A DNA stretch of 64,000 nt from Acidobacteriota bacterium (GTDB lineage Bacteria > Acidobacteriota > Blastocatellia > RBC074). Position 1 is the stretch's first letter. Every line of letters begins with the position of its first letter. Positions 10,501 to 46,207 of this stretch are shown here, piece by piece. The translations under genes were made by a program, and so were the position numbers. Below the pieces are notes generated by a model that worked only from the letters and a program-made list of their open reading frames with translations, did no database searches and was not told the DNA's origin. Location of the stretch: positions 5,835 through 69,834 of the forward strand of contig JAYUCP010000171.1 of assembly GCA_043740245.1 (NCBI GenBank). Reading direction: 5' to 3'.

Positions 10501-12238
10501 TGCCGCCGCCGGAGGTGAGGCCGCCCAACAGCGCCACCCAACTCGTCCCATTCCATTTCGCGATGCCTCTGGTTGTCCCCTCGCTGGCGGTAATCGTGAA
10601 AGCCCCGCCCGCATATACGTCGCCGTTGGCGCTCACCGCAATCGCGCGAACCTCAGAGCCGGCGCCGCCCGCGAGGCCGTTGCCGAGCGCCGACCATTGC
10701 GTGCCGTCCCATTTGACGATGTTGTTGGCGGTGACGCCGCCCGCCACGGCGAACTGGCCGCCGACGTAAACATCAGCGCCGTGTATCGTGACCGCCGCGA
10801 TGTAGGGCGGAATGTTGCTGCTGCCGTATGAAGTGAAGATCGCCTTGCCGCCGCCGCCCAGCGCCGCCCACGCCGCGCCATTCCAGCGCGCCAGGTTGCT
10901 CACATTCGGCCCGCCCACGCCGCGAAAATCGCCGCCCACATAAAGGTCGCCGCCCGTGGCCGCCAGTGCATAAACAGCCACGACTAAGTTCGTCCCGCTG
11001 GCCGCCACACCGTTGCTGAGCGCCGCCCAGCTTGTGCCATTCCACTCCGCGATGTTGTTCACGGTCACGCCGCCCGCCGTCACAAAGCTGCCGCCCGCCG
11101 CGAGATTGCCGCCGCGCACCGCCAGCGCCCTGACCTTGAGCGAGTCGCTCAAGTTCGCGCCCAAGCCGCTGCCGAGTGCCGCCCACGCGCTGCCGTTCCA
11201 GCGTGCCAGACGGCTGGCGCTGACGCCGCCAATCGTGGTGAAGCCACCCCCCGCGACGAGTTCGCCGTTGTAAAACGCCAAGGCATAAACCGTGGCGCTC
11301 GCGCCCGTGCCCAGCGCCGTCCACGCGCTGCCGTCCCAACGCGCCACGCGATTCACCGTCACCCCGCCCGCCGCCGTGAAATCGCCGCCCGCATAAAGCT
11401 CCGCGCCGTTGAGCGTCAGCGCGAAGACCTGTCCTGCAAAAGGCGGCGCTGTCAGGCCCGGGCCGAGCGCCGCCCACGCGCTGCCGTTCCAGAGCGCGAT
11501 ATTATTCACGGTCACGCCACCCGCTGTGCTGAAGACGCCGCCGACGTAAACATTCGCGCCGCTGATGGCGATGGCGCTGACGTTCGGATTGAAAGCCGAA
11601 CTCAGTCCTGTTCCCAAAGCCGACCAAGTGCTGCCGTTCCATTTAGCTATCCCTTTGATGGCCGCGCCACCCGCCGTCGTGAATGTGCCGCCCGCATACA
11701 CGTCGTTGCCGCTCACGGCCAGCGCCAGCACGTCGCTGCCGAGACCGCTGCCCAGCGCCGACCACGCGCTGCCGTTCCATTTGGCGATGCGGTTGGCGCT
11801 GAGCGTGCCGACCAGCGTGAACGTCCCGCCGATATAAATGTCGCCCGTCGCGCTGACGGCTACGGCATTGACTTGGCCGACGGGGCCGGGCGCGTAAAAC
11901 TGCGTGTCCCAGTTTTCATCGCAGGTGGCAGCCGGAGCCGCGCTCGCCAGAAAGCGCGGCGCGCCATTGGCGGCCAACGCCATGCGCCAACCGCGCGCGT
12001 CGAAGCTGCCGCGCAAGTCCGGCGCGCCTTTCAGCGTGCCATCCGCATTGAGCAGGCCCGGATTGAGCGCCGTTGCCAAGGACGCGGATGCGCCGGGCCG
12101 CAGTGACGGCGCGTCCTGTGTCGCCCCGGCCTGGCGCGGCGTGAAGCTGAAGGTTGCGAACACGCTGGCGGCCAGCAGCAGGCCGAGCAGGGCAGCGCGT
12201 GTGAAGGGCGCTGATGGTTGGTGAAATACGCGAGGCAT
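4571..12238 (-). CDS. Giant secreted surface/adhesin-like protein (~2556 aa): Kelch-like propeller repeats, 14 Ig-like repeats, PKD-like domain, C-terminal FG-GAP/VCBS propeller
   Basis: AAGGAG RBS plus ATG at 12238 and signal peptide. The N-terminal third has ~50-aa repeats YAGG.F..AGGV..NNIAKWNGS.WSALG.G. Then 14 repeats of ~84 aa (..TQPANQTVCAG..ATFSV.ATG..L.YQWRK.GVNIGGA..S..TI...TAADA..YDVVV.GACG.VTS..A.LTVN). Then a PKD-like segment. Then ~7 repeats of GDYDGDG.DIAVWR....WY. Confidence 0.85.
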   Translation of the reverse strand: MPRVFHQPSAPFTRAALLGLLLAASVFATFSFTPRQAGATQDAPSLRPGASASLATALNPGLLNADGTLKGAPDLRGSFDARGWRMALAANGAPRFLASAAPAATCDENWDTQFYAPGPVGQVNAVAVSATGDIYIGGTFTLVGTLSANRIAKWNGSAWSALGSGLGSDVLALAVSGNDVYAGGTFTTAGGAAIKGIAKWNGSTWSALGTGLSSAFNPNVSAIAISGANVYVGGVFSTAGGVTVNNIALWNGSAWAALGPGLTAPPFAGQVFALTLNGAELYAGGDFTAAGGVTVNRVARWDGSAWTALGTGASATVYALAFYNGELVAGGGFTTIGGVSASRLARWNGSAWAALGSGLGANLSDSLKVRALAVRGGNLAAGGSFVTAGGVTVNNIAEWNGTSWAALSNGVAASGTNLVVAVYALAATGGDLYVGGDFRGVGGPNVSNLARWNGAAWAALGGGGKAIFTSYGSSNIPPYIAAVTIHGADVYVGGQFAVAGGVTANNIVKWDGTQWSALGNGLAGGAGSEVRAIAVSANGDVYAGGAFTITASEGTTRGIAKWNGTSWVALLGGLTSGGGTVHAIAISGNDVYAGGSFTTACSNAACTTFFPASGIAKWDGSAWSALGSGIGGSFSFVFALAVSGNNLYLGGRYDTAGGVIANGIAKWNGSAWSALGSGIGPSLQSNTVRALAVRGNELYVGGTFTSAGGAPAASIAKWNESTSTWSALGSGIPSHTVYALAVSGNSIYATGDFTIAGGLTGVNELARWNALNNTWSAVGSGLGGGFNNSSAVGTALAAAGGQLYLGGNFTTAGGQQAQFFAHYTEGTAVIATQPANQTVCPGQAATFTAVVTASNGTLSYQWRKNGVNVAGATNNSYTTPTVTAADNGALFDVVVVNACGASVVSTAATLTVNNPPTITAQPVAATVCAGDTATFSVSATGATNYQWRKNGAAISGANAATLIINNAQPGDAGAYTVDVVNTCGTVSSNAATLIVNTAPVISAQPASQMLCAGGTATFSVTATGATGYQWKKDGSFIAGATGTTLTISNAQAADAGGYTVEASNGCGTTASATATLSVNAVTAITAQPAGQTVCNGATASLAVTATGTNLTYQWRNDGVNIGGATGSSFTIATATAAQAANYDVVVTGACGSVTSTVATLTVNAATVINTQPTSQTLCTGTAATFSVAASGTALTYQWRKDGVNIGGANGSSYAIAGVTPADAASYDVVVSGACGTLTSTAATLTVNALTSINTQPANQTVCAGTPATFSVAATGTNLLYQWRKDGASVNGANSSSFTIPAATAADAASYDVVVSGACGSVTSSAASLAVNTTTAINTQPANQTVCAGAAASFSVAATGASLSYQWRKGGVNIGGATGSSFIIANASAADVASYDVVVSGACGSVTSTVATLTVNAATAINTQPTSQTVCAGTPATFSATATGTNLTYQWRKNGNLINGANGGSFTIAAATAADAANYEVVVSGACGVLTSSAATLTVNATTAINAQPTNQASCLGGAVTFAVNATGTSLAYQWRKGGVNIGGANGSTLTLAAVTAGDAGSYDVVVSGACGSVTSAAASLTLTEATAINTQPASQTACPGGAATFSVAASGAGTVTYQWRKGGVNIGGANVASLTINPVSAADAGNYDVIVNSTCGSVTSSAVTLTVNATTAINTQPANQTVCAGTSATFSVAASGTGLTYQWRKGGVNISGANGSSFTIATANAADAASYDVVVTGACGSTTSSAASLAVNTTTAINTQPANQTVCAGAAATFSVVATGASLSYQWRKGGVNIGGATAASFTINQVTAGDAAAYDVIVSGACGTVTSSAATLTVNTTTAISTQPQSATVCAGAPASFSVTAAGAGLSYQWRKDGVNISGATAASYNLASATAAQAGSYDVVVTGACGTVTSSAATLTVNPATAISAQPASQTANAGQSVAFAVTATGASLNYQWRKNGAAISGATASSYTIAAVTAADAGNYDVVVTGACGALTSNPAALTVGGGCATPVVSITSPPSGSIYPVGTAVNFTGAFTDAAGGTHSATWSFDAGTQPGVVNEAAGTVSASHTFTEAGVYQVTLTVSNGCGGQGTAITSGGLTALVVVYDPSAGFVTGGGWIVSPPGAYPPNPSLTGKASFGFVSKYKKGATIPTGETEFQFALANLNFHSTLYEWLVVAGARAQYKGAGTINNTGDYRFILTAIDGQQSGGGGQDKFRIRIWNNNGGGLVYDNQMNAPDSADPTTVLGGGQIVIHTGGNGNGLAAQSLVFGDFDGDGQADLTVWRGQTGEWLMLESNAASVRAELWGSSAAPYFDVPVAGDYDGDGKMDLAVFRRSTGMWFIKCSRDGAVISKLWGLGTDIPVPGDYDGDGQTDIAVWRGAESNWYILYSGRSSDQQVQTISWGVSTAPYRDVPVPADFDGDGQTDVAVFRQATGYWYIKQSSDGQVIARPWGLGTDIPVAADYDGDGKADIAVWRGAEGNWYVLRSSDDEVQAFAWGTAALGDVPVPGDYDGDGRADVAVWRARDSNWYVRLSRTGSVMTRAHGQTGDTPITAKQP
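6221..9751. repeat. 14 tandem 252-bp coding repeats (Ig-like domains) with high nucleotide identity
   Basis: 84-aa protein repeats counted 14 times (YQWRK motif). Spurious antisense ORFs in the six-frame track recur with exact 252-bp spacing (7551, 7803, 8307, 8559 and so on). Confidence 0.8.
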
Positions 12239-12365
12239 AGCAGTCTCCTTGGTTGGCTCTTTGTGTAGTTGTGATTGAAAGTGAATGAATAGGCAGCGCC
12301 GCGCACTGCGTCGCCGCACAGGTTGAGCGCGCGCCGGTGCGGTACGCGCGCGCGGTATATGGAAA

Positions 12366-18870: not shown

Positions 18871-19146
18871 CTACTTCGCGGGCGGAATACTGAGCTTCAA
18901 TTCAAAGACATGGTCTTGGGGCTTGAACTCGTTAAATGTGGGGGGCCAAGGCGGATCCGGATCCGCCGGGTCATGCGGAATCAGGATGAGCACCTTGAAT
19001 ACGCCTTTATCCGTGACTGTTCTTACTTCGGCGAGTTTGGGTTTGAAGGGTTCCTTTTTCAAAGTGTCCATGACTAGCCCTAGCAATTTGCCCTCTCCGG
19101 CCAGAGGCGTTTCATATTCCAGCACCCGCAGAAACTTCTCTTGCAT
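18871..19146 (-). CDS. Small hypothetical protein (91 aa) in a lower-GC segment
   Basis: AAGGAG RBS 7 nt upstream of ATG 19146. The segment has locally lower GC. Confidence 0.45.
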   Translation of the reverse strand: MQEKFLRVLEYETPLAGEGKLLGLVMDTLKKEPFKPKLAEVRTVTDKGVFKVLILIPHDPADPDPPWPPTFNEFKPQDHVFELKLSIPPAK

Positions 19147-19450
19147 GTTTTGCTCCTTACTTGGAAAGAGGTAGAGCGATTTGCCAAAGCGCTCCACCGA
19201 ATTTTCGGCAATGCCGTATTGTCGCGGCTTCAACGATTGGCATAGAATGCCGCCACCGTTGAGTTCAGCCGTGAGTCCCGCAATGACTCACGCCATGTTT
19301 CCGCCCTCCACACGGCATCGAGTTCGGGTTGTTACTTACTGCTTGTCTGCTGTAATGCACGATAGACCAGTGTGCTTTGATAGTCTTTAAGGTTTGGGAA
19401 AATTCCGGCTAAAGTCCGCTGAAATTTTTCCGGCCAGGGGGAGTAACTCG

Positions 19451-20833
19451 ATGAACACACGACCACGCATGATTTACGAATTCGGCCCGTACCGTCTGGA
19501 ACTGGCTGAATGCCGCTTGTTGCGGAACGGCAAAGAGGTAACGCTCAGGCCAAAGCTTTTCGATCTGCTGGCCGTGCTGGTGCAGCGCGGCGGGCAGATG
19601 ATCGAGAAAGACGAGCTATTGCAAACCGTCTGGCCCGACAGCGCCGTCGAAGAAAACAACCTGACCGTCAGCATCAACGCGCTACGCAAAAGCATCGGCG
19701 AACATTACATCGAAACCGTTTCGAAACGCGGTTACCGCTTCACGGCGGCGGTCAAGCCGGTGTCTGCGGATGCGCCAGCCACGGCTCAGCCCAGTGTGCC
19801 CGTGTTACCGCCCGGTGAATTGCAGCCGCCCGGCGGCGCGTTGCCGTTGCATTCGCGCCTATACATCGCGCGCCACACCGATGCGCAATTCGGCGCGGCC
19901 ATCGCGCGGCGCGACAGCATCGTGCTGGTCAAGGGCGCGCGTCAGGTGGGCAAGACTTCGTTGCTCGCGCGCGGCTTGCAACAGGCGCGGGCGGCGGGCG
20001 CGGCGGTCGTGCTGACCGACTTTCAACACCTCAACGCCGAAGCCTTTGCCACTGTCGAAAAGCTCTTGCTGACGCTGGCCGAATTGATCGCCGACCGGCT
20101 CGACCTGGATACGCCGCCGCACGAACACTGGAACAGCTTTCTCAGTCCGAGCAGCAATTTCGAGCGCTACTTGCGGCGGCAGGTGCTGGCGCGGCTGACG
20201 ACGCCGCTGGTGTGGGGTTTGGACGAAGTTGACAGGTTGTTCAGCTTTGCTTACGCCAGCGAGATTTTCGGCTTGTTCCGCTCGTGGCATAACCTGCGCG
20301 CGCTCGAACCCGAAGGGCCCTGGCCGCGCCTGACGCTGGCGCTGGCTTATGCCACCGAAGCGCATCTGTTTATCACCGATCTCAATCAATCGCCTTTCAA
20401 CGTTGGCACGCGGCTGGTGCTCGAAGATTTCACGCGCGAGCAAGTGGCCGAATTGAATGAACGCTACGGCGCGCCGCTTGGTGATGCTGCCGAGGTCGCG
20501 CGCTTTTTCGCCTTGCTGGGCGGGCATCCTTATCTGGCGCAGCGCGGCTTGTATGAACTGGCGCAACACGGTCTCGCGTTGACGGCGCTCGAAACGCAAG
20601 CCGACCAGGACGAAGGTTTGTTCGGCGATCATTTGCGGCGGCTGCTGGTGTCGCTCGAACGCGATGCGGCGTTGTGCGAAGCCTTGCGCGCGTGGTTGCG
20701 AGGCGAGGCCGCGCTGGCGAACGCGGAGTTTTACCGGCTGCGCAGCGCGGGCGTGCTGGCGGGCGAAGCAGCAGCCGAAGCGCGGCCACGCTGCGAGTTG
20801 TATGCGCGTTACTTGAAACAGCGGCTGTTGTGA
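19451..20833 (+). CDS. OmpR/PhoB-type winged-helix DNA-binding domain fused to AAA-like (P-loop) ATPase domain
   Basis: GGGGGAG RBS plus ATG at 19451. The N-terminal [54 protein letters not shown]...[15 protein letters not shown]...VSKRGYRF is a canonical trans_reg_C. A Walker [12 protein letters not shown] follows. The ATPase domain is paralogous to the N-terminus of 21194..24487 (shared GHPYL(A/T)QR). Confidence 0.75.
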
Positions 20834-20843
20834 TGGTGTCAGC

Positions 20844-21138
20844 AGTCGCATTCTCTTCGTCGCAGAGCGACGGCTGACTTTAGCCGTGGGTTTCAACCCA
20901 CGGAACGTTCGGCAATAGTTCCCGCGTCGCGGAGCGACGCTTGATGCTTGGCGTAATTCGCATTGTGTTTTTCCGTCATCACGATGCAATGGAAAAGCGA
21001 GGTACAGGTTTGCCATTTCGTTTTTCCGTCAATCCTTCAAGCGTCGCTACGCGACGCGGGATGCGCGCGCTGTCGTCCGTGGGTTGAAACCCACGGCTAA
21101 AGTCAGCCGTCGCTCCGCGACGAAGAAAGTGCGCATTT
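20844..21138. mobile_element. MITE-like palindromic element, family A copy 1 (~60-bp imperfect TIRs, nested inner inverted repeats)
   Basis: Left end tcgcattctcttcgtcgcagagcgacggctgactttagccgtgggtttcaacccacgg pairs with the right end ccgtgggttgaaacccacggctaaagtcagccgtcgctccgcgacgaagaaagtgcgc. Inner inverted repeat cccgcgtcgcggagcgacgcttga / tcaagcgtcgctacgcgacgcggg. No coding capacity. Related copies at ~51003 and ~55883. Confidence 0.6.
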
Positions 21139-21193
21139 CGTAAAAAGATATGGGTAATGACAAGCCCCGCGTCGGGCTACTGATACGAGTTCA

Positions 21194-24100
21194 ATGATGG
21201 ACACATTGCAAAAACAATTCGCGCCCGGTTTTTATGTGGTCGGCGGCACGCTGCGCCACGATGCGCCGTCGTATGTCGAGCGGCGCGCCGATCACGAGTT
21301 GTTTGAAGCCCTGGCGCGCGGCGAATTTTGTTACGTGCTGACGGCGCGCCAGATGGGCAAATCGTCGTTGATGATTCGCACGGCGATGCGGCTGCGCGCG
21401 GCGGGTTGCGGTGTCGCCGTGCTCGATCTGACCGCCGTGGGCCAGAACCTGACGGCGGAGCAATGGTACGGCGGGCTGCTCTTGCAAGTCGGTCAGCGGC
21501 TCGAATTGGAAGACGAGTTGATCGAGTTCTGGCAAGCGCAAACGCTGCTCGGCCCGTTGCAACGCTGGCTGGCGGCGTTGCGCACGGTGGTGTTGGCGCA
21601 TTATCCAACCAGGCGGCTGGCCGGGCGGCTGGTGATTTTCATTGACGAGATTGACGCGGTGCGCAGCTTGCCGTTTTCGACTGATGAGTTCTTTGCCGGG
21701 TTGCGCGAATGTTACAACCTGCGCAGTGAAGACGCGGAACTGGAGCGCCTGAGTTTTTGTCTGTTGGGCGTAGCGACACCAGCGGACTTGATCCGTGACA
21801 CCCGCACGACGCCTTTCAACATTGGCCGCCGCGTCGAATTGCACGATTTCACCGCCGCCGAAGCCGCGCCGCTCGCGCAAGGCTTGAATTGCCCCGCGCC
21901 CAGCGCCGGCGCTTTGCTGGCGCGCATTCATCACTGGACGAACGGCCATCCTTACCTGACGCAACGCCTCTGCCAGGCCGTCGCCGAAGCCAATCTGCAA
22001 GCCACCAACCACCAGCCGCAATTGCCGCAATTAGTGGATGAGTTGTGCGCCGAATTGTTTTTCACGCGGCGCGCGCAGGAACGCGATGACAATTTGCTCT
22101 TTGTGCGCGAACGCCTGTTGCGCAACGAGACCGCTGTGGCGAGCCTGCTCGATCTTTATGCCAAGGTGCGCAAGGGTCGCCGCGTGATGGATGACGAAGC
22201 CGATCCGCGGGTGAGCACGTTGCGCTTGGCGGGCATTACGCGCGGCGCGCCCGCCGGGTTGGCGGAAGCAGGCTTGCAAGTGCGCAATCGCATCTACGCG
22301 CGCGTTTTCGATCCGGCCTGGGTTGCGGCGAACATGCCGCAGGCCGAATTGCGGCGGCAACGCGCGGCCTATCGGCGCGGCATTGTGCGCACGGCCTTGT
22401 TGAGCGGGTTGTTGCTGGCGCTGGTGGGCTGGCTGGCTTTCACCGCCATCCGCCAACGCAACCGCGCCGAACAGGAAGCCGAAGCGCGGCGGCAGTTGCT
22501 TTACGATTCGCAACTGCGCTTTGCCTGGCAGGAGTACCAGACCATCACCAACACTGACCGCATCGAAGAGTTGTTGGATGGCACCCGTCCGCAACCCGGC
22601 CAGAACGATTTGCGCGGGTTCGAATGGTATCAACTCTGGGCGCTCACGCATGGCGGCGTGTGGAGCTGGCAGGAGACACACAAAGTCGTCGCCACAGCCT
22701 TCTCCCCGGATGGCCAGACGCTGGCAATCGGTACGGCCAATCGCACGGGCGCGCACGGCGACAATCACTATCTGGTGAAACTCTACGACTTCAACACACG
22801 GCGCGAACTGCGTTCATTCCTCACACCCGCAGGCAACAGCTTCGATCTCATCAGCTTTACGCCAAACCTTGAACGTGTAGCCACAGATAGCCCCGGCAAT
22901 AACGTTGTGATGTGGGATGTGCTGACGGGCCAGCCGTTGGCGGTATTCAAAGGACACACCGCTTTGCTGACGGTCATCGCCTTTGCGCCCGATGGCCGCT
23001 GGCTGGCGACCGGCGATGTGACCGGCGTCGTGAAGCTCTGGGACACGGCGACGGGCCGCGAACGATTGACGCTGGGACAAAGCAAGACAGGCGCGCCGCC
23101 CTCGCACGACATCACCTGGCTCGCCTTTGCGCCGGATGGCCGCCGGCTGTTGGCCGCCGATGGCACATCAACCGCGCGTTGGTGGGAAACCGCGACAGGC
23201 CGCGCGCTGCCGCCGTTCACCTTGCCGGATGGCTTTGTTCAAAACGCCGTCTTTCTGCCCGGCGGCAAACAGATATTGATGGGCGACAAAGACAGCGTAT
23301 TCCACCTGTGGGACGTAGCAGCGCGGCGGCATTTAACCCGCTGGAACGGTCACGCCGGCTTTATCAAAGCCTTCGCTTTCGCGCCTGATGGCCGCACGTT
23401 GGCGACCGGCAGTTATGACCGCACCGTCAAACTCTGGCCGTTGGCGACGCTGCCTAAACAAGCGCCGCAACCCACGACGTTGCGCGGCCACGGCTCGGCG
23501 GTTTATTGCCTGGCCTGGTCGCCCGATGGCCGCTGGCTGGCGACGGGCAGTTTGGACAACACCGTCAAACTGTGGGACACGCACGTGCCGACCGACTTGC
23601 GGCTGCCGGCGGAAACGGTGGTTTCTTGGCACGCGACGGCGTTCACCAGCACGCACGAATTACTGGCGCTCGGCACGAGCAAAGGCGGAGAGGTGAAGCT
23701 CTGGAATCTGTCTACCGGCCAGACATTGGCGCAACTCAGCGGGTTGGAACCGGACAAGCCGTTGTTGTGCGCCGTCTTTTCGCCCGATCAACAGTTGGTG
23801 GTGACGAGCGGCATGGATTCGCTGGTCAGGCTCTGGGATACGGCCAGCGGGAAGCTGCTGCAAACGCTGGATCGGCACACGTCACTGGTCAAAGGCTTGG
23901 CCTTTTCAGCCGATGGCAAGTTGCTGGTGTCAGGTGGCGACGATTCATTATTCCAACTCTGGGAGACAGCAACGGGGCGCGCGTTGGGCCAATTCAAAAG
24001 TGAGGTGGACAATGCCTGGCGCGCGGCCTTTGCGCCGGATGGCCGCACACTGGCGGGGGCTTGCCGCGACGGCAGCGTGAAGCTGTGGGACGTGGCGACG

Positions 24101-24487
24101 CAACGACTCTTGCGCAGCTTCAATGGGCACACGGACAGAGTCAAAGCCCTGGCCTTTTCGCATGACGGCCACTGGCTGGCGACCGGCGGCGATGACGGCA
24201 TCATCAAATTGTGGGAAGCCGCCACGGGCCGCGCGCTGAAAACGCTGGGACGCAGCGACAAACTGCAACGCCTCGCCTTCTCGCCCGACGGCAAACGCCT
24301 GGTCACGGGCGGTGTGGATGGCGCCGTCAAACTCTGGGATCTGACCACCGGCCAGGAACTGCTGACCTTGCCAGGCCACCAGGACGAAGTGACTTCGCTC
24401 ACCTTTGCGGGCGACGGGTTGAGCCTGGCAACCAGCGGCGGCGACGGCACAGTGCGGCTTTGGCGCGCGTCGGCTGCTAGGCAGTAA
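21194..24487 (+). CDS. AAA-like ATPase domain + predicted TM helix + ~14 WD40 repeats (1097 aa)
   Basis: N-terminal P-loop ARQMGKSSLM and DEID Walker B-like motif. A hydrophobic segment ALLSGLLLALVGWLAFTAI lies around residue 400. The C-terminal half has repeated GH....V.AFAPDGR.LATGS.D..VKLWD units. Confidence 0.85.
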   Translation: MMDTLQKQFAPGFYVVGGTLRHDAPSYVERRADHELFEALARGEFCYVLTARQMGKSSLMIRTAMRLRAAGCGVAVLDLTAVGQNLTAEQWYGGLLLQVGQRLELEDELIEFWQAQTLLGPLQRWLAALRTVVLAHYPTRRLAGRLVIFIDEIDAVRSLPFSTDEFFAGLRECYNLRSEDAELERLSFCLLGVATPADLIRDTRTTPFNIGRRVELHDFTAAEAAPLAQGLNCPAPSAGALLARIHHWTNGHPYLTQRLCQAVAEANLQATNHQPQLPQLVDELCAELFFTRRAQERDDNLLFVRERLLRNETAVASLLDLYAKVRKGRRVMDDEADPRVSTLRLAGITRGAPAGLAEAGLQVRNRIYARVFDPAWVAANMPQAELRRQRAAYRRGIVRTALLSGLLLALVGWLAFTAIRQRNRAEQEAEARRQLLYDSQLRFAWQEYQTITNTDRIEELLDGTRPQPGQNDLRGFEWYQLWALTHGGVWSWQETHKVVATAFSPDGQTLAIGTANRTGAHGDNHYLVKLYDFNTRRELRSFLTPAGNSFDLISFTPNLERVATDSPGNNVVMWDVLTGQPLAVFKGHTALLTVIAFAPDGRWLATGDVTGVVKLWDTATGRERLTLGQSKTGAPPSHDITWLAFAPDGRRLLAADGTSTARWWETATGRALPPFTLPDGFVQNAVFLPGGKQILMGDKDSVFHLWDVAARRHLTRWNGHAGFIKAFAFAPDGRTLATGSYDRTVKLWPLATLPKQAPQPTTLRGHGSAVYCLAWSPDGRWLATGSLDNTVKLWDTHVPTDLRLPAETVVSWHATAFTSTHELLALGTSKGGEVKLWNLSTGQTLAQLSGLEPDKPLLCAVFSPDQQLVVTSGMDSLVRLWDTASGKLLQTLDRHTSLVKGLAFSADGKLLVSGGDDSLFQLWETATGRALGQFKSEVDNAWRAAFAPDGRTLAGACRDGSVKLWDVATQRLLRSFNGHTDRVKALAFSHDGHWLATGGDDGIIKLWEAATGRALKTLGRSDKLQRLAFSPDGKRLVTGGVDGAVKLWDLTTGQELLTLPGHQDEVTSLTFAGDGLSLATSGGDGTVRLWRASAARQ

Positions 24488-24524: not shown

Positions 24525-25235
24525 CTACACGAGATGCTTCTTGAAAAAGTCAGTCGTTCGCTCCTTCGACAACTTGATCGCGTCAGCCCCGCGAAAGCCG
24601 TGTCCCTCGCCCTTGTACTTGTGATATTCGAAGTCAGCCCCCTGCACCTTGCCGGCCTTCACCAGCCGTCCCGCCAGTTCATCGCTTTGCGTGATAGGGA
24701 CGATCTGATCGGCGTCGCCGTGATGAATTTGAACGAGCGGCAAATCGCCGAGGTGATCTGCCAGGCCATTGAATGGCCCCTGAGAAATCGGCGCGTAGAA
24801 TTCGACCACGGCGCCAGCGGCAACGCCCGGCTTGAGCTTCGCGCGACGCAGGGCGAGGTTACCGCCGAGCGAGAAGCCGAGCAGGCCGCGCTTCGCCTTT
24901 TTGTCCACCTCGGGCCGGCTGGCCGCGAAGTTCAAGCAGTCGCCGAGCGTGTCCAGCCATTCGCCGTGATGGGCCGGATAGTCATGCGAGACCGTGGCAA
25001 AACCTTCCGGCGTACCGCTGCGCTCAAAGAAGTGCGGCAGCAGCACCACGAAGCCTGCGCGCGCCAAATGCTGCGCGAAGTCGCGGAGCGCCGCGCCCAC
25101 GTCGTGGCCCAGGATTACTCCCAGCCCCTCCGTGCCGTAAGCCAGGACCACCGCCGGATGCGACCCGGACGCCGCCGGTAAAAATAACTCGACGGTGATC
25201 TTTTTTCCGCCGCTGTCGAATGTCGTAGTCGTCAT
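24525..25235 (-). CDS. Dienelactone hydrolase family alpha/beta hydrolase
   Basis: AAGGAG RBS plus ATG at 25235. Nucleophile elbow GFSLGG. The ORF extends to 25466 without an RBS. Confidence 0.65.
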   Translation of the reverse strand: MTTTTFDSGGKKITVELFLPAASGSHPAVVLAYGTEGLGVILGHDVGAALRDFAQHLARAGFVVLLPHFFERSGTPEGFATVSHDYPAHHGEWLDTLGDCLNFAASRPEVDKKAKRGLLGFSLGGNLALRRAKLKPGVAAGAVVEFYAPISQGPFNGLADHLGDLPLVQIHHGDADQIVPITQSDELAGRLVKAGKVQGADFEYHKYKGEGHGFRGADAIKLSKERTTDFFKKHLV

Positions 25236-25471
25236 TTGAGTCTCCTTTTCAGCCAGCACAACGCTGCTTGACGCCCGGCAGCAGCGCACCTGCCGCCAGG
25301 AAGTTTTTGGGATTTGAGGCGGTTGGCCGCCTCTACCAACAAAGGCGAGTTTCGGGCGGCAAAGCGGCCAACCGAATTGGAAAAATAGCGCGCGCAGCAA
25401 GGCTGTGTTAGATTGCGCGCCATTCAGGCAGTACTCACCAGCACCACACGGAACAGTTTGAGGCACGGCAA

Positions 25472-26104
25472 ATGGCAGTTTCTTCTACGCACGATGGCAC
25501 ACACGAAGTCACACGCTTGCTCACCGCGTGGAGCGCGGGCGACCAAGATGCTCTCGCCCAACTCGCCCCGCTCGTTGAAGCCGAGCTGGAACGGCTGGCG
25601 CACGCTTATCTAAACAAGGAACGCGCGGGCCACACGCTGCAAACGGGGGCGCTGGTCAACGAGGCCTATCTGCGTTTGATTGATTGGCAAAACCAGGATT
25701 GGCAGAACCGCGCGCATTTCGTCGGCGTGGCGGCCCGCTTGATGCGCCACGTGCTGGTGGATTATGCGCGCCGCCGCCAGTTGCCCAAACACGGTGGCGA
25801 GCTGTTGCGCGTTTCGCTCACGGCGGCGGCGCGCGCACCGCAAGCGCTCGACCCTGAGATCGTGGCGCTCGACGAGGCCTTGAAGACGCTGGCCGCTTTC
25901 GATCCGCGCCAGAGTTCCATCGTCGAGTTGCGCTTTTTCGGCGGCTTGACCGAAACAGAAGTGGCCGAGGTGTTGCAGATCAGCGAACGCACCGTGCGCC
26001 GCGAATGGAGCGTGGCGCAGGCCTGGCTTTACCGCGAATTGCAACGGGCTGAGCCGGACAAAGCCAACCACGGGGCACACGGGGCGCACGGGGAAAGCCA
26101 ATAA
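25472..26104 (+). CDS. ECF-type RNA polymerase sigma factor (TIGR02999-like subgroup)
   Basis: N-terminal EVTRLLTAWSAGDQDALAQLAPLV..ELERLA and a region-4 HTH LTETEVAEVLQISERTVRREW. The C-terminal tail NHGAHGAHGES is encoded by the left arm of a family-B palindromic repeat. Confidence 0.8.
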   Translation: MAVSSTHDGTHEVTRLLTAWSAGDQDALAQLAPLVEAELERLAHAYLNKERAGHTLQTGALVNEAYLRLIDWQNQDWQNRAHFVGVAARLMRHVLVDYARRRQLPKHGGELLRVSLTAAARAPQALDPEIVALDEALKTLAAFDPRQSSIVELRFFGGLTETEVAEVLQISERTVRREWSVAQAWLYRELQRAEPDKANHGAHGAHGESQ

Positions 26105-29135: not shown

Positions 29136-30074
29136 ATGAGACAAGGGAATGGCTTTTCCGAAACGGCCTGGCTGATCTGGCTTTCGGGCGCGGGCTGTGA
29201 CGGTTGCACGCAAGCCTTGATTGGCGCGGCTGAGCCCAGCCTCGAAGATTTGCTCCTCGGCAATATCCCGGATGTGCCGCGCTTGGCGCTCATTCATCCG
29301 CAATTCGGCCCGCACTTTTTTACCCAACCCAAAAATTCATCCCGCTCAACCGGTTCGTTGCGGCCCGTCAATGAAAATTACTGGAAGCCGGGCGAGAGTT
29401 ACGAAACGCTCTTGCGGCGCGCGGCGGCGGGCGAATTGCACCCGTATCTATTGGTGTTGGATGGCGCGTTGTATGAGGAACCTGTCGCCACAAACGGCAG
29501 CTTTGCCCAAATTGGCGCTGACCGCGAAGGCCAGCCGCTGACGACCGCCAGTTGGTTAAAGCTGTTGGCCCCGCACGCCGAGGCCGTGCTGGCCGTAGGC
29601 AGTTGCGCTAGTTTCGGCGGCATGCCGGCGGCGACAGTTGACGCCACAGTTGCCAACGGCGTCGTGGTCAAAGGCATTGAAGACGTTTTGGGCAAGCAGT
29701 TCCGTAGCCAGAGCGACTTGCCCGTGATACATCTGCCGGGTTGTGCGCCGGCGGGTGAATGGATGCTTGAAACGCTGCATTACATTTTCTTGCACCTGGC
29801 ACACCTGGTGCCGCTCGACCTGGATGAAACCGGCCGGCCGCGCTGGTTATTCAACAAAGAAACCTATCCCTTGCCGCCGCGCGCTGATTATCCACCAGCG
29901 GCGGATTTCGACGCGGCGCGTTCACCCAAAGTGGCGTGTACTGTGCCCGCCCAGGGTTGGTTGCGCGGCTTGGGCGGATGCACGCGGATGGGCGGCAGTT
30001 GCATCGCTTGCACGGAGCGCAATTTTGCCGACCGGCATTTGCCGTTCGCGCGGCCTGATGCGTTTGCCGCTTAG
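29136..30074 (+). CDS. [NiFe]-hydrogenase small-subunit-like protein (cytoplasmic type, no Tat signal)
   Basis: LIWLSGAGCDGCTQALIG aligns with the small-subunit N-terminus (..ECTGCSES..). LAVGSCASFGGMPAA and PGCAPAGEW match the GxCAxxGG and PGCPP proximal-cluster motifs. The C-terminal cysteines are C-x17-C-x5-C-x2-C. No RR motif. Confidence 0.6.
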   Translation: MRQGNGFSETAWLIWLSGAGCDGCTQALIGAAEPSLEDLLLGNIPDVPRLALIHPQFGPHFFTQPKNSSRSTGSLRPVNENYWKPGESYETLLRRAAAGELHPYLLVLDGALYEEPVATNGSFAQIGADREGQPLTTASWLKLLAPHAEAVLAVGSCASFGGMPAATVDATVANGVVVKGIEDVLGKQFRSQSDLPVIHLPGCAPAGEWMLETLHYIFLHLAHLVPLDLDETGRPRWLFNKETYPLPPRADYPPAADFDAARSPKVACTVPAQGWLRGLGGCTRMGGSCIACTERNFADRHLPFARPDAFAA

Positions 30075-30195
30075 ATCGGATTTCAATTCGGTATACGGGA
30101 AATTGGTGGGACGATTTGGCTAATCGTCCCACCGGCTTCCTGGCCTGATTCAGCAGTTCAGTTTGACCGGCTGACTTGTAGGAAGAGAGGGATAC

Positions 30196-32052
30196 GTGAG
30201 TTTTCACGACGCAGTGCTAACCAGTGAGCGGACGGAAGCTGGGTTGGCGTCCGAACTGCGCTTCGACAATTTGCCTATCCGCAGCGCTGCCGAGGGCGGC
30301 TTCTCTCTCTGCGAGGGCGTTTGGCCAGAGCCGTTCAGCCTGAAAGGCGGCGCAGAACGGCGCGAACAGGCGCGCACGCGCGCGCAGGTGATTCAAGAGC
30401 TGCGCCAAAAGCCGGAAGTCCAGACCTTTGAAATTTCCACGCTGACACAAACCAGCAGCGGGCTGGGCCTGTACAGCGTGATTGATCTGGCGCAACGCAA
30501 AGTCTGGGACGCGCGCTTGAGCATGAATTTGCTGCGCGAGTTCGAGCCGCTGTTGCTGCAACGCCATCCTTCGGACGCGCTGCATTTCGCCAGCCGCGCG
30601 TGCGGGCGCGATAGCGGCGCGCAAACGATTGCCTCGATTATGGCGTTGGAGATGGCTTATGGCGTAACGCCGCCGCCGCTAGTGGTGTTGATTCGCAACC
30701 TGGGTCAATGCGCAGAGTTGATCGCCAACAATCTGTATAGCCTGTTTTTGCTGGCGGGCACCGATTACTCCGAAGCCGTGCTGAGCCGCTCGAATCCCGC
30801 GCTCTGGCGCAAGGCCCAACAGAGCGCCGCCCCCGGCGCGTTGCTGCACGGCATGCCGACCATCGCGGGCATTATGCTGGGTTTGAATCGTATGCAAGGG
30901 CATTTGCACAGCGAGGCCTGGCAGACGCTGCGCACGGCGCGCGAGTTGACGGCGATTCTCTTCGGCAAGTATCCGCATCCGACGACGCTTTATCCGGGCG
31001 GTGTTGGCATCAATGCGGACAAGGAATTATTCACGCAGGTGCTGGGCCGCGTGAATCAATTGCTCGATTTCAGCAAGCGCGTGCTGGCGCTCTGGAACGA
31101 CGTGATTAACTTCCTGCTCGAAAGCGAGCCGCGTTTCAAACGCGCGGGCGCGACCCCGGCGAATTTTCTGAGCGCGGGGCTGTGGGATGATCCGCAGAGT
31201 TACGATGCGAGCTTTGAAAATTGCAGCGCCTGGGGCGAACGGCGCGGCGCGACGCCCGGCGTCGTCATCAACGGCAGATTGCGGACGACGCGGCTGGCCG
31301 AGTTGAACCTGGGCGTAGAAGAGTTTGTCGAACATTCGTATTACCAACCGTGGGTGGGTGATTATTGCGATGTTGATTTGGCGGGCGCGCCGCTCTCGCC
31401 CTTCCATCCGTGGAATAAACAAACCTTGCCGCAACCGTCCGCGCGCGCCTGGCTGGGGCGTTATTCCTGGTTGACCGCGCCGCGCTGGGATCGCGAAACC
31501 GTCGAGACCGGCGCGCTGGCGCAATTGTGGATCACGGCGCTGGCGGGCTCCCTGGAAAGCGAATTCATCCATATCACAGGTCAGGGGCTGGAAATTGAAT
31601 TGCCGAAAGTTCAACTGCCCGCCTTTAGATTCACCTGGCAACTTCCAGCGCACCCGAACACCTTGGAGCGCGTGCGTGCCCGCGCCGCGCAAACGGCGTA
31701 TGCGGCGGTGATGGCATTTGAAATGTTGTTGCAGGCCTTCGATTACCTGCGGCGTCCCGGCCAGCGTGAACTTTCGGCGCCGTATCAAGTGCCGAAGCTG
31801 GCGATGGGCGTGGGCTTTGGTGAAAGCGGGCGCGGCCCGGCGCTGCATCATCTGTTGATCGCCGACAGCAAGCTGCTCAATTACCAATTGAGCACGCCGT
31901 TGAATTGGCTGGCCGCGCCGCGCGATTGTTACAGCGCGCTCGGCGTCATCGAAGCCGCCTTGATGAATACGCCGATTCTGGAAGAGTTTGCTGAGCCGGA
32001 CGCATTTACCGGCATTGATTTGCTGCGGACGATTCGCAGTTTCGATCCGTGA
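30196..32052 (+). CDS. [NiFe]-hydrogenase large-subunit-like protein lacking Ni-Fe ligand motifs (618 aa)
   Basis: AGAGAGGGA RBS plus GTG at 30196. SRACGRDSGAQTIAS aligns to the L1 motif RICGVCTxxHALAS. GESGRGPALHH and KLLNYQLSTPLNWLAAPRD match conserved large-subunit blocks. The protein ends ...LRTIRSFDP with a TGA stop exactly where DPCxxCxxH (L2) begins. Confidence 0.6.
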   Translation: MSFHDAVLTSERTEAGLASELRFDNLPIRSAAEGGFSLCEGVWPEPFSLKGGAERREQARTRAQVIQELRQKPEVQTFEISTLTQTSSGLGLYSVIDLAQRKVWDARLSMNLLREFEPLLLQRHPSDALHFASRACGRDSGAQTIASIMALEMAYGVTPPPLVVLIRNLGQCAELIANNLYSLFLLAGTDYSEAVLSRSNPALWRKAQQSAAPGALLHGMPTIAGIMLGLNRMQGHLHSEAWQTLRTARELTAILFGKYPHPTTLYPGGVGINADKELFTQVLGRVNQLLDFSKRVLALWNDVINFLLESEPRFKRAGATPANFLSAGLWDDPQSYDASFENCSAWGERRGATPGVVINGRLRTTRLAELNLGVEEFVEHSYYQPWVGDYCDVDLAGAPLSPFHPWNKQTLPQPSARAWLGRYSWLTAPRWDRETVETGALAQLWITALAGSLESEFIHITGQGLEIELPKVQLPAFRFTWQLPAHPNTLERVRARAAQTAYAAVMAFEMLLQAFDYLRRPGQRELSAPYQVPKLAMGVGFGESGRGPALHHLLIADSKLLNYQLSTPLNWLAAPRDCYSALGVIEAALMNTPILEEFAEPDAFTGIDLLRTIRSFDP

Positions 32053-40161: not shown

Positions 40162-41520
40162 ATGGGTGCCGCCTTGGATAAGATCATCTCCGCTGGGCTG
40201 ATAATACTGCTGGTGTTTACGGCCCTGGCCTTTGGAACTGTCGAGCCTTGGTCAGTGGCGCTCTTTGAATTGGCGGTCATGGTTTTGCTGATCCTTTGGG
40301 CCGTGAAAACCGTTCTGGATGGGCAACTCATAGTATTGATTCCCGCAATTGCCTGGCCGGTTTTCGGCTTGCTGCTGGTTGGCCTCGTGCAAAGCGTGGC
40401 CGTGACCGAAGCGGATGGGCAAATCCGCAGCCTTTCGGCAGATGTTGAAGCGACGCGCTTGCGTGTGTTGCTACTCGGTTGTTTGCTGGCTGCGCAGGTG
40501 CTGGCGACCAATTTTTTGACGAAGCGGGAGCGCATTGAAGCGGTCGGGCGGTTCCTGGCGTTTTACGGGTTGCTGTTCGCAGTGTTTGGGCTCGCCCAGC
40601 ATTTTTCCTGGAATGGCAAGTTCTTTTGGCTGATCGAACCGACCTTCCCGAAAGATGGTGTCTTCGGGCCGTTTGTGAATCGTAACCATTTTGCCGGTTA
40701 CGTCGAGATGCTGATGCCCATCCCGCTGGCGATGGTATTGCTCAAGAGTGTACGCCGGGACGCCCGGCTCTTTTATGGCTTCGCGGCGGTGGCGATGGGA
40801 GTCGCGGCGGTGATCTCGCTTTCACGGGGTGGCTTGGTCAGTATGTTCAGCAGCGTGCTCTTTGCCCTCACCGTAAGTTTATGGATTGGGCAAAAGCGGC
40901 GCGTGCGTGCAGGGCAGCCCTTATCACATCCGCGCGCCTTGCTGGTTTCGCGTTTCAGCGTCGGTGTGCTAGTCATAGCGACAATCATTGGCGGGATTTT
41001 CTGGGTGGGCGTAGACCCGGTGCTCGACCGGTTGACAAAAAGCCAGGTGTCGGGCGAAGCGGGGCCGGGCATGCATACGTTGTATTCCAGTCGTGGCGTG
41101 ATCTGGGATGGGACGCTGGACTTGATCGCCGCCAATCCGCTTTTGGGTGTGGGGTTGGGCGCTTATCAAACAGCCTTCCCCAGGTTTTCAAAATGGGATA
41201 GCGCTTATACGCCTGTGGCCGAGGCCCACAACGATTATTTGCAGGTGCTGGCGGATGCCGGGTTGGTGGGCGGCGGCTTGGCGCTTTGGTTCCTGATCGT
41301 TTTCTTGCGCAGCTTTTTCCGCGGGGTGCAACACCCCGATCCGGCGCTGGCTGCGCTGGCGTTGGGCGCCGGCAGCGGCGTCTTTGCTTTGTTGGTGCAT
41401 AGTTTCTTTGATTTCAATTTGCAGTTACCGTCGAATTCGCTGTTGTTTTTGTTGCTCGCTGCCATGGTTTCCGTCCTTGGCACCCCGGCGCGCAGCCAGA
41501 AGACGGCAAAAACAATTTGA
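40162..41520 (+). CDS. O-antigen ligase / Wzy-like polymerase family membrane protein (Wzy_C-type)
   Basis: ~10 predicted TM helices. The segment AHNDYLQVLADAGLVGGGLALWFLIVF is characteristic of the Wzy_C (O-antigen ligase) domain. Confidence 0.7.
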   Translation: MGAALDKIISAGLIILLVFTALAFGTVEPWSVALFELAVMVLLILWAVKTVLDGQLIVLIPAIAWPVFGLLLVGLVQSVAVTEADGQIRSLSADVEATRLRVLLLGCLLAAQVLATNFLTKRERIEAVGRFLAFYGLLFAVFGLAQHFSWNGKFFWLIEPTFPKDGVFGPFVNRNHFAGYVEMLMPIPLAMVLLKSVRRDARLFYGFAAVAMGVAAVISLSRGGLVSMFSSVLFALTVSLWIGQKRRVRAGQPLSHPRALLVSRFSVGVLVIATIIGGIFWVGVDPVLDRLTKSQVSGEAGPGMHTLYSSRGVIWDGTLDLIAANPLLGVGLGAYQTAFPRFSKWDSAYTPVAEAHNDYLQVLADAGLVGGGLALWFLIVFLRSFFRGVQHPDPALAALALGAGSGVFALLVHSFFDFNLQLPSNSLLFLLLAAMVSVLGTPARSQKTAKTI

Positions 41521-41600
41521 TTCAGCAGCGCTGCTGGCCCCGCGCGTCCGGTTTCGGATAAATGTTGAATCCCTCCACCTCACAAAAGGAGGTACCGATT

Positions 41601-42731: not shown

Positions 42732-42886
42732 TTCTCGCAAGCGTTATCCCCGAAGCGCTTCCTCGAAATGGGCAGGCTGGCAGCTTGTCCCATTGGCAGT
42801 GAAGAGCATTGCGAGCAGCAAGATCAACCTGTGGCGTGTCTGCCAAAACACGCCACACATACAAACTGCAACTAACGGGTGAGGTT

Positions 42887-46142: not shown

Positions 46143-46207
46143 CCGGGGAGAAATTGAAGCCAAATCAGGCCTCAGCCGCATGCATTAGACATTATCGGAA
46201 ATAGGAA

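Follow-up and report, generated by a model that had tools for sequence, protein, structure and literature searches.

Gene content and features of the locus

In the window, by which we mean the whole 64,000-nucleotide stretch of DNA that was analysed, two adjacent genes on the forward strand, here designated A and B, encode proteins in which related NTPase modules are joined to different partner domains, and a palindromic element lies between the two genes. The features referred to below are as follows.

19219-19248, forward strand: promoter-like site 5' of A (TTGTCG-18-TAGAAT), from a consensus scan; weak evidence
19451-20833, forward strand: gene A, 460 aa; winged helix, disordered linker of ~20 aa, A-type AAA_35 NOD-like NTPase
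19469-19765, forward strand: winged helix-turn-helix (wHTH) DNA-binding domain of A, aa 7-105
19934-19957, forward strand: Walker A of A (G162-ARQVGK-T169); G162, G167 and K168 invariant in 38 homologues, T169 at least 90% conserved
20207-20227, forward strand: Walker B of A (LVWGLDE); D258 and E259 invariant in the alignment
20519-20536, forward strand: GGHPYL motif of A, GxP-type, in the helical subdomain; G358, P360, Y361 and L362 invariant
20847-21133, no strand assigned: inserted palindromic repeat element, 287 nt; 58-nt terminal arms, nested 25-nt inverted repeat
20858-20903, reverse strand: Acido-Lenti-1 (RF01687), left arm, 41.7 bits
21077-21122, forward strand: Acido-Lenti-1 (RF01687), right arm, 44.6 bits
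21194-24487, forward strand: gene B, 1097 aa; B-type AAA_35 NOD-like NTPase, one transmembrane (TM) helix, 14 WD40 blades
21341-21364, forward strand: Walker A of B (T50-ARQMGK-S57); R52, Q53, M54, G55, K56 and S57 invariant in 34 homologues
21632-21649, forward strand: Walker B of B (VIFIDE); D151 and E152 invariant in the alignment
21941-21958, forward strand: NGHPYL motif of B; G251, P253, Y254 and L255 invariant
22394-22450, forward strand: TM helix of B, aa 401-419, ALLSGLLLALVGWLAFTAI; Kyte-Doolittle hydropathy 2.22
22676-24484, forward strand: 14 WD40 blades of B; PF00400 317 bits, xLW[DE]-type signatures

Gene A starts with the ATG at 19451, in agreement with the N-termini of its homologues, and its product is 100% identical to a database entry of 460 aa. 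Pfam assigns it Trans_reg_C (aa 27-97, 1.5e-17) and AAA_35 (aa 127-456, 2.2e-77), the latter covering positions 2-330 of the 331 in the PF14516 (AAA_35, 'AAA-like domain') profile with 260.6 bits, against a curated gathering threshold of 27 bits. The DNA-binding part has the wHTH fold, scores above the gathering threshold of the OmpR/PhoB-family winged helix (PF00486) and has CadC, ToxR and HilA as its nearest relatives; NCBIfam matches are confined to this part, with scores far under the cut-offs. Pfam finds no Response_reg match in gene A, which sets it apart from two-component response regulators with their receiver and phospho-acceptor Asp, and no BTAD match after the winged helix, where the disordered linker lies instead. 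The promoter-like site upstream falls within a block common to the window and its closest orthologous locus, L001, and such sites are no more numerous than in shuffled sequence. In this window, neither a promoter targeted by A nor a conserved gene under its control was identified.

Gene B likewise carries AAA_35 (aa 18-270, 1.5e-26), which matches positions 4-250 of the 331 in the profile with 93.5 bits. The hydrophobic segment that follows sits inside one long helix (aa 382-450) in the AF2 prediction and has a counterpart in 66 of 67 B-type homologues and in none of the A-types. The net charge flanking it is +5.4 on the N-terminal side and +1.9 on the C-terminal side, and the N-side charge exceeds the C-side charge in 62 of 65 B-type proteins, with the reverse in none. 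Because of this positive-inside bias the NTPase of B is placed in the cytoplasm, and the WD40 region is predicted, with hydropathy and charge bias as the sole basis, to lie outside it. Fourteen WD40 signatures between aa 528 and 1092, spaced ~42 aa apart, mark this region as propeller-forming, and would correspond to two seven-bladed propellers. The original prediction for this DNA had described an N-terminal winged helix on one ATPase, a hydrophobic helix between the other ATPase and some 14 C-terminal WD40 repeats, and had named the families PF14516, PF00486 and WD40 for a check; all of these are found in A and B.

Paralogous STAND-like NTPase modules

As had also been proposed, the two ATPases are homologous. 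In a proper alignment (BLASTP) 311 aa match at 34% identity (E=9e-25), a stretch that takes in Walker A (GARQVGKT / TARQMGKS), Walker B (LDEVD / IDEID), SPFN[VI]G and GHPYL; the two modules are paralogous. A-type and B-type modules form separate clades, with ~30% identity between the types and 53-92% inside each, so the duplication is old. Both have a STAND/ORC-like fold, common to CED-4, NLRs and Avs3/4/5, in keeping with the STAND/AAA-like character first suggested for them, with the tripartite NOD arrangement of nucleotide-binding, helical and winged-helix domains. A and B are probably both active NTPases, since neither family varies at the Lys of Walker A or the Asp-Glu of Walker B (K168/D258-E259 in A, K56/D151-E152 in B). 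The GGHPYL and NGHPYL motifs provide the GxP motif of the helical subdomain, and their position in the model suggests that they are equivalent to the GLPL/GxP motif of NB-ARC proteins. These proteins depart from the STAND class in one respect: effector, NOD and repeat sensor are not on one polypeptide, but are divided between two separate proteins in 71 loci, and no fused A-B form occurs among the A-type and B-type matches listed.

The spacer element

The 360 nt separating A from B in the window (20834-21193) fold as a single hairpin of ~290 nt (-221 kcal/mol, z=-17.9), formed around an element whose arms (20847-20904 and 21076-21133) are 95% complementary. Each arm is a copy of Acido-Lenti-1, a motif in Rfam, and the two copies are inverted relative to one another; the gathering score of the RF01687 covariance model is 37 bits. 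A further copy lies elsewhere in the window (55915-55961, 42.5 bits). Exact matches to a 28-nt core of the element occur on 117 metagenome contigs and are frequently arranged in inverted pairs ~130 nt apart; the arms are matched 105-215 times vs 2-4 times for the centre. The original prediction of a MITE-like element at 20844-21138, within a few bases of the limits given here, is upheld by the terminal inverted repeats, the many dispersed copies and the presence or absence at orthologous sites, which together identify a MITE-like or REP-like element; inspection of the flanks at 20847/21133 revealed no obvious target-site duplication. The anticipated lack of the element at orthologous loci is seen where A and B overlap, by 4 nt (stop/start) at nine loci, e.g. 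L002 and L004, and by 43 nt in seven pairs, e.g. L006, and the spacer is just 46.5% identical to that of L001. The 360-nt spacer is a lineage-specific insertion, and its palindrome could uncouple expression of B from that of A in this genome.

Conservation of the A-B pair

At 71 of 81 related loci, or 71 of about 75 that are informative, the next gene after the A-type gene, on the same strand, is a B-type gene, ~6 contigs being too short to judge; at the remaining loci one B-type gene is adjacent but divergent and four A-types have no B. The order is shared by lineages whose A proteins are merely 50-70% identical, and the distance matrices of the A and B NTPases are correlated (r=0.79, with none of 2000 permutations as high). 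Gene neighbours of the pair are conserved no further than the nearest relative, which identifies the pair itself as the conserved unit. The pairing is non-random, and the proposed check of co-occurrence in other genomes shows the pair to be conserved. At least 585 matching loci exist among species-representative genomes, ~1750 A-type clusters (50% identity) are recovered at E<=1e-30, and the module is distributed across hundreds of soil Acidobacteria, with several paralogous pairs in individual genomes.

These data bear directly on whether A and B might be independent regulators, functionally uncoupled and brought together by tandem duplication or chance. Their paralogy, and the 360 nt with a strong hairpin between them in the window, would be compatible with such an origin; however, the reading is contradicted by the same-order adjacency, the stop/start overlaps and the correlated distances, and it accords poorly with the age of the duplication implied by the separate clades and with the complementary domain content of the two proteins. 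We regard it as very improbable.

Exchangeable partner domains

The A-type module is always C-terminal and follows a variable N-terminal domain (wHTH, BTAD, Pkinase, TIR, cyclase or caspase/CHAT), and the B-type module is N-terminal and precedes a TM helix plus WD40, TPR or CarboxypepD_reg. Among 74 representative A-type proteins the heads include TIR_2 in 36, BTAD in 23, all more distant from gene A, caspase in two and CHAT in one. Nineteen sister operons have the layout ECF sigma / Pkinase-NOD / NOD-TM-WD40, with the sigma gene immediately 5' of a kinase-type A. Orphan A-types without an adjacent B are also found (L035, L079 and L084, and TIR-only forms in the Verrucomicrobia, L204 and L206), from which it follows that an A-type NOD is able to work without a neighbouring B.

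TIR, caspase and CHAT are the kinds of head that typify conflict systems, and the abundance of such heads raises the possibility that the ancestral role of the A-type family may be immune rather than sensory. The window's pair could itself be a STAND-type immune or conflict system, in which B would sense an invader or damage cue at the envelope and A would trigger a defence or dormancy programme, with sister A proteins firing TIR, caspase or kinase effectors directly. The fold shared with CED-4, NLRs and Avs3/4/5, the composition of the heads, the multiple paralogous pairs per genome, the faster divergence of the sensor repeats (~30-50% identity) than of the NTPase (53-69%) and the CHAT-TPR gene and transposase adjoining a TIR-type pair (L052) are all consistent with this idea. 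Yet the output in the window is a DNA-binding domain and no toxic effector, the predicted location of the sensor is extracytoplasmic, whereas known Avs and bNACHT proteins sense intracellular phage proteins, and the neighbouring genes are ordinary chromosomal ones (hydrolase, hydrogenase, EPS). Orthologues of the wHTH-type A are 56-88% identical across many lineages, which is above what is usual for defence genes, and kinase-type pairs are located in ECF-sigma operons. PADLOC-DB 2.0 returned for A only weak P-loop matches to PDC-S01 (4e-5, ~50 aa) and for B only a WD40-region match to a HEAT-ARM model. An immune function for this pair therefore appears unlikely.

A proposed two-subunit signalling device

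We favour, with modest confidence, the view that A and B are two subunits of one device, a STAND-like regulator split over two paralogous NOD proteins. B would be a single-pass membrane receptor with its NOD in the cytoplasm and two WD40 propellers outside, and A a soluble output subunit that would control transcription through an OmpR/CadC-type winged helix tethered to its NOD by a flexible linker. Binding of a ligand or envelope cue by the propellers might be passed through the long TM-containing helix to the NOD of B, where nucleotide would be exchanged or bound; this NOD might then join the paralogous NOD of A or nucleate its oligomerisation, by the same logic as in the recruitment of helper NLRs by sensor NLRs. 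Binding to direct repeats and transcription activation by OmpR-family domains require that the domains be brought together, and clustering of A could do this for its winged helices. The original prediction of a signal-transducing NTPase pair, with a sensor propeller and a DNA-binding ATPase, is supported; the predicted extracytoplasmic position of the propellers, the distinct and co-evolving A-type and B-type lineages, the swappable partner domains and the identity of the 'MITE' arms with Acido-Lenti-1 go beyond it.

The same pairing, co-variation and topology would also serve if regulation had the opposite sign. B would then be a membrane-anchored anti-activator that tethers A by NOD-NOD contact, resembling an anti-sigma factor or the MalK/MalY proteins that hold MalT, and a signal on the propellers would free A to self-oligomerise and activate transcription. 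The orphan A-types lend this arrangement some appeal, suggesting that A-type NODs can function unaided and that B came as an additional layer of regulation, but a pure tether would need no NTPase site, and that of B is intact and highly conserved; we consider it rather improbable. Tight translational coupling suggests near-equimolar synthesis of A and B, which fits a complex under either sign of regulation.

A broader proposal, possible but doubtful at present, is that the two-subunit device is the bacterial equivalent of paired sensor and helper NLRs, in which a membrane-spanning NOD receptor would template the nucleotide-dependent assembly of a paralogous NOD, and an interchangeable head (wHTH, SARP, kinase with ECF sigma, TIR, cyclase or caspase) would set the response. 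Such modules would form a previously unrecognised class of transmembrane signalling, apart from two-component, ECF/anti-sigma and ToxR-type systems. To our knowledge, the bacterial STAND regulators and immune sensors described so far (MalT, AfsR, Avs, bNACHT) are all single cytoplasmic chains. If the two-subunit reading is true, placing sensor and output on two paralogous NODs, with the sensor across the membrane, would bring extracellular sensing within reach of NOD switches and offer a simple prokaryotic model of sensor-helper NLR communication. The swappable heads would amount to a natural experiment on the coupling of a single switch to transcription, to phosphorylation, to cyclic nucleotides or to TIR domains that consume NAD. 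Acidobacteriota are a dominant soil phylum and poorly understood, and the abundance of the module there implies that it may carry a real share of their environmental sensing.

Comparison with known systems

No named system for A-B was found in PADLOC, PDB sequences or the literature, and the first reading of the sequence had likewise matched it to none. Among the closest known systems are AfsR and the large SARP regulators of actinomycetes (OmpR-type wHTH, BTAD, NB-ARC STAND NTPase and TPR), which share the N-terminal wHTH fused to a STAND-like NTPase, a repeat sensor and transcription activation as output, and whose BTAD domain recurs in the 23 A-type relatives mentioned above. However, AfsR is one cytoplasmic polypeptide with an NB-ARC NTPase, whereas here effector-NOD and NOD-sensor are separate paralogous proteins with AAA_35 NTPases, the sensor half crosses the membrane, and gene A of the window lacks BTAD. 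MalT, Avs3/4/5 and bNACHT are likewise single-chain and cytoplasmic, in contrast to the predicted position of the A-B sensor, and none of the PADLOC models for these families matched A or B.

Paired NLRs (NAIP-NLRC4 in animals, sensor/helper pairs in plants) also use two paralogous NODs, one that senses and another that carries the output, and the plant genes are adjacent, as A and B are. These pairs are eukaryotic, with both partners cytosolic and with cell-death or inflammasome outputs, whereas B spans the membrane and the output of A is DNA binding; hetero-oligomerisation is for A and B a putative step. CadC and ToxR, with N-terminal wHTH domains, resemble the A-B logic in that an extracytoplasmic sensor steers an OmpR-type domain without a phosphorelay, but they are single chains (wHTH, TM, periplasmic sensor) without an NTPase, whereas A-B interposes two NODs and puts DNA binding on a soluble protein of its own. 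The archaeal PF01637-type ATPases PAB2304 (PDB 2qen) and SSO1545 (PDB 2fna) are just 14-16% identical in sequence; they stand alone, are of unknown function and have no reported pairing, TM helix, wHTH or WD40. Finally, a class of ECF sigma factors (ECF43 and related groups) is controlled by Ser/Thr kinases, and the sister operons agree with this known sigma-kinase association (PMC7826278); unlike those systems, the window's pair uses a wHTH. An ECF sigma gene at 25472-26104, 1 kb 3' of the pair and outside the A-B operon, is 52-62% identical to the sister-operon sigmas.

Genes A and B

The interval under study holds two ORFs on the same strand:

19451-20833, + strand: gene A, ATG start at 19451, 460 aa
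21194-24487, + strand: gene B, 1097 aa

Gene A joins an OmpR/CadC-type winged helix (wHTH; Pfam Trans_reg_C, aa 27-97, 1.5e-17) to a full-length AAA_35 NTPase module (PF14516; aa 127-456, 2.2e-77), and gene B carries an AAA_35 module at aa 18-270 (1.5e-26) together with a long WD40 region in which 14 blade signatures span aa 528 to 1092. One strong hydrophobic 19-mer is present in B (aa 401-419) and none in A. The two NTPase modules align over 311 residues at 34% identity (E=9e-25), have Walker A, Walker B, SPFN[VI]G and GHPYL motifs in common, and retain an invariant Walker A Lys and Walker B Asp-Glu throughout both families. The original prediction of neighboring, related ATPases, one fused to a winged helix and the other to a transmembrane (TM) helix and about 14 WD40 repeats, thus holds in every particular by ORF calling, Pfam assignment and hydropathy, and the alignment disposes of the concern that the ATPases might be unrelated. 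Databases name these proteins only “AAA-like domain-containing protein” or “DNA-binding wHTH protein”. A longer ORF for gene A, from a TTG start at 19394, was rejected because homologs share the Met at 19451 and a database entry of 460 aa matches the protein at 100% identity.

The pair as a conserved unit

A protein search with gene A returned more than 4098 matches, and the best 120, drawn largely from MAGs of Blastocatellia, Pyrinomonadaceae and other Acidobacteriota, all have the gene A architecture at 56-88% identity. A gene for a 1075-1103-aa AAA_35+WD40 protein lay directly 3' of the A homolog in the first four distinct loci checked. Scanning one genome per species then gave at least 585 matching loci; ORFs were called in the best 80 and in the earlier loci, and each NTPase was typed by BLAST against the window's A and B modules. 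Modules typed as A share 54-92% identity with A and about 30% with B, and those typed as B share 53-88% with B and about 30% with A. Among 81 distinct A-type genes, 71 are followed immediately, on the same strand, by a B-type gene; in about six the contig ends too soon downstream, in one (locus L039) the B-type gene adjoins divergently, and in four (L035, L050, L079, L084) none was found although 650 nt or more of sequence was available downstream. The recurrence of the pair in other genomes, on which the original prediction hinged, is thus the usual arrangement.

The reading frames of A and B overlap by 4 nt in nine pairs and by 43 nt in seven, and pairwise distances among A modules track those among their partner B modules (r=0.79, reached in 0 of 2000 permutations), a correlation to which common descent contributes, although the data set does include several paralogous pairs per genome. 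Conserved adjacency, overlaps and co-varying distances lead us to reject plain tandem duplication and effectively to exclude that A and B are adjacent by chance only; the two very probably work together. The A-type family as a whole does not require a neighboring B, as orphan A-types show (for example L035, L079, L084 and TIR-only forms in Verrucomicrobia). A conserved regulated neighbor was also sought around the window's pair, and its flanking genes proved to be shared only with the closest orthologous locus, L001.

Fold of the NTPase modules and topology of B

In a PDB sequence search only the wHTH of A found matches (CadC 5ju7 at 1.7e-18, plus ToxR and response-regulator DNA-binding domains); neither NTPase matched, that of B not even at E<=1. 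AlphaFold models built from family alignments were confident, with pLDDT 86.1 for A, with a disordered linker at aa 107-121, and 87.0 for aa 1-489 of B, in which one long helix (aa 382-450) contains the TM segment. By structure comparison, both modules as modeled are NOD-like AAA+ switches at the STAND/ORC-Cdc6 boundary; structurally closest to them are archaeal PF01637 ATPases of unassigned function.

Structure comparison of the NTPase modules (score)
PAB2304 (2qen), 292 aa aligned: 20.9
SSO1545 (2fna): 20.3
CED-4: 18.1
TIR-NLR: 16.7
Wheat NB-ARC resistosome: 16.4
ORC/Cdc6: about 15
MalT: 14.9
Avs3: 14.5
Avs5: 14.1
Avs4: 13.2
Apaf-1: 12.5

Of 67 B-type ORFs, 66 encode a hydrophobic helix C-terminal to the NTPase module, though without sequence conservation. 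Mean net charge is +5.4 over the 15 residues before this helix and +1.9 over the 15 after it; the N-side is the more positive in 62 of 65 B-types and the less positive in none. Since the NTPase must be cytoplasmic, these sequence rules predict that the repeat domain of B is located beyond the cytoplasmic membrane.

Modularity of the two families

When the NTPase module of A alone was searched against 1.84 billion representatives, 8588 clusters matched at E<=1e-3 and 1748 at E<=1e-30. Throughout the best 150 matches (150/150) the module forms the very C-terminus, preceded by 0-870 aa of N-terminal extension. A Pfam scan of 74 of these A-type matches (sample P0361-P0509, alignment A10) identified diverse N-terminal domains, and the 40 “long” A-type proteins of the fetched loci carry Ser/Thr kinase (37), TIR (18) and nucleotide cyclase (2) domains.

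N-terminal domains of A-type proteins (of 74)
TIR_2: 36
BTAD: 23
Pkinase: 14
Trans_reg_C: 3
Guanylate_cyc: 3
Peptidase_C14: 2
CHAT: 1

B-type modules are N-terminal; most are followed by TM plus WD40, others by TPR or CarboxypepD_reg domains. Classical STAND proteins are built as effector-NOD-sensor in a single chain, whereas in the window the effector-NOD and NOD-sensor halves are separate paralogs.

Several forms within the A-type family were noted in passing. At the level of 50%-identity clusters (74 representatives) only a minority have the wHTH-only head of gene A, and the SARP BTAD in 23 of the 74 ties the family to AfsR-like regulators. TIR-only A-types of about 520-550 aa (L204 2948-4507, L206 7001-8590, L205 7001-13097) occur in Verrucomicrobia and other phyla with no adjacent B-type gene, and their NTPases are 68-79% identical to the search query, the cyclase-TIR A-type of L079. 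At L205 a PQQ-type propeller gene lies between the A-type gene and an AAA_35+TPR gene. Just upstream of a kinase-TIR-type A/TPR-type B pair at L052 (2697-8030) lie genes for a CHAT-TPR protein and a DDE transposase, which give this subtype a more conflict-system-like neighborhood than that of the window's pair.

ECF sigma factors and genomic neighborhood

Immediately 5' of kinase-type A genes, and often overlapping them, an ECF sigma gene is found in 19 loci. Several ECF sigma groups have known or proposed control by Ser/Thr kinases (PMC7826278). These sister operons point to transcription as the end-point, which the window's version would reach directly through its wHTH.

The window has its own ECF sigma gene (PF07638; 25472-26104, + strand), 52-62% identical to those preceding the kinase-type A/B operons of the 19 other loci, 1 kb downstream of B and with no kinase beside it. 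A dienelactone-hydrolase gene (24525-25466) in opposite orientation separates it from B, and the sigma gene was not retained as a third component. Coincidence, a functional link or a relic could each explain its presence.

In 13 loci (L004 7446-7745, − strand; L014 9248-9859, − strand; 11 further) a divergent gene immediately upstream of a wHTH-type A gene encodes a fast-evolving protein of about 95-200 aa with conserved Y..F...W(L)...PW motifs, and in nine loci a haem-peroxidase-like gene (PF03098) stands behind it; together they form a candidate target operon. The window ORF at 18871-19146 (− strand) has the same divergent position, but hhalign did not place it in this family (probability 13%), and it is therefore not counted as a component.

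The 230 nt upstream of A (19220-19450) contain a promoter-like TTGTCG-18-TAGAAT and a GTGAGTC...GACTCAC hairpin, and are 87.9% identical to L001 9770-10000 (coding regions, 86.6%). A riboswitch or leader RNA was rejected here: no Rfam match was found, and the 88% identity equals that of the coding regions.

Elsewhere, the window encodes a 2582-aa protein (4571-12319, − strand) built from numerous Ig-like, PKD and FG-GAP repeats and probably serving as a giant surface protein or adhesin, NiFe-hydrogenase small and large subunits (29136-32052, + strand), a 1742-aa multi-PAS/GAF hybrid histidine kinase (32236-37464, + strand) and an exopolysaccharide cluster with Wzy-like, Poly_export, two Wzz/GNVR tyrosine-kinase-like and glycosyltransferase genes (40162-50910, + strand). 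The hydrogenase, histidine kinase and exopolysaccharide genes are an ordinary chromosomal context rather than a defense island.

Proposed mechanism and relation to known systems

From the observed components, pairing, co-variation and modular logic, we rate the A-B system as a split, transmembrane, two-paralog STAND-like switch, and infer its mechanistic steps as follows. B would be the receptor, with propellers outside, a TM helix and its NOD inside, and A the output subunit, a NOD plus wHTH. A cue met by the propellers would alter the NOD of B, and this NOD would engage its paralog in A in a nucleotide-dependent manner; A would then cluster, and its OmpR-type domains would bind DNA and activate transcription. 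We lean slightly toward this scheme as a whole; hetero-oligomerization of the two NODs, taken as a step by itself, is a more tentative proposal that falls somewhat short of even odds. The same parts would also serve sequestration, with B as an anti-activator of A and the sign of the response reversed, which we consider improbable.

An immune or conflict role would fit the NOD fold, the many TIR, caspase and CHAT heads found across the broader A-type family, and the multiple paralogs per genome. However, the output in the window is a DNA-binding domain, the sensor is predicted to face outside, PADLOC assigned no defense system to A or B, the neighborhood is ordinary chromosomal, and sister systems form operons with ECF sigma genes; such a role is therefore unlikely.

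The nearest analogs in function and parts are AfsR and the large SARPs (wHTH-BTAD-NB-ARC-TPR), although BTAD is missing from gene A, its NTPase belongs to a different family, and the window's system is split and membrane-spanning. Paired NLRs (NAIP-NLRC4, plant sensor/helper pairs) resemble the pair in logic, and CadC and ToxR share its wHTH and outside-in signaling but have no NTPase. A full-text literature search found nothing on AAA_35 (PF14516) proteins, the A-B pairing or its modularity, and targeted look-ups in the Aravind-lab conflict-system papers and a 2026 STAND phylogeny paper brought up no account of the family or pairing. The system is widespread in a major soil phylum, distinctive in architecture and directly testable.

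The intergenic element and Acido-Lenti-1

A and B are separated in the window by a 360-nt spacer that would fold as RNA into a single hairpin (-221 kcal/mol, z=-17.9). Its features, and a second site of the same Rfam family, are:

20847-21133: palindrome, 58-nt arms 95% complementary, nested 25-nt inverted repeat
20858-20903, − strand: Acido-Lenti-1 (RF01687), left arm, 41.7 bits, above the Rfam gathering threshold
21077-21122, + strand: Acido-Lenti-1 (RF01687), right arm, 44.6 bits, above the Rfam gathering threshold
55915-55961, − strand: second Acido-Lenti-1 (RF01687) site, within palindrome 55883-56147

Exact copies of a 28-nt core are found in 117 metagenome contigs, frequently as inverted pairs some 130 nt apart, and the element arms recur 105-215 times, the window's central 80 nt only 2-4 times. 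In L001 both coding regions are about 86% identical to the window at the nucleotide level, whereas its spacer is unrelated (46.5% identity) and has a different, (GGAGATT)n inverted repeat. Ancestrally the two genes thus formed a tight operon, and the window's element was inserted later, as a copy of a dispersed palindromic repeat, bearing out the earlier suspicion of an element inserted into an original operon.

The L001 spacer (11396-11649, 254 nt) has its (GGAGATT)n runs in inverted orientation, and the flanking pair is 88% identical to the window's at the amino acid level; two unrelated palindromic insertions have thus occurred at the same A/B junction in sister lineages. Acido-Lenti-1 is listed by Weinberg et al. 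2010 (PMC2864571) as a motif, from Acidobacteria and Lentisphaerae, that probably represents a non-coding RNA. Within the window the motif is confined to the arms of nested palindromes that lie in spacers between same-strand genes; the second palindrome has perfect 22-nt outer arms and 49-nt inner arms. Acido-Lenti-1 may represent not a stand-alone sRNA gene but a palindromic repeat, mobile or REP-like.
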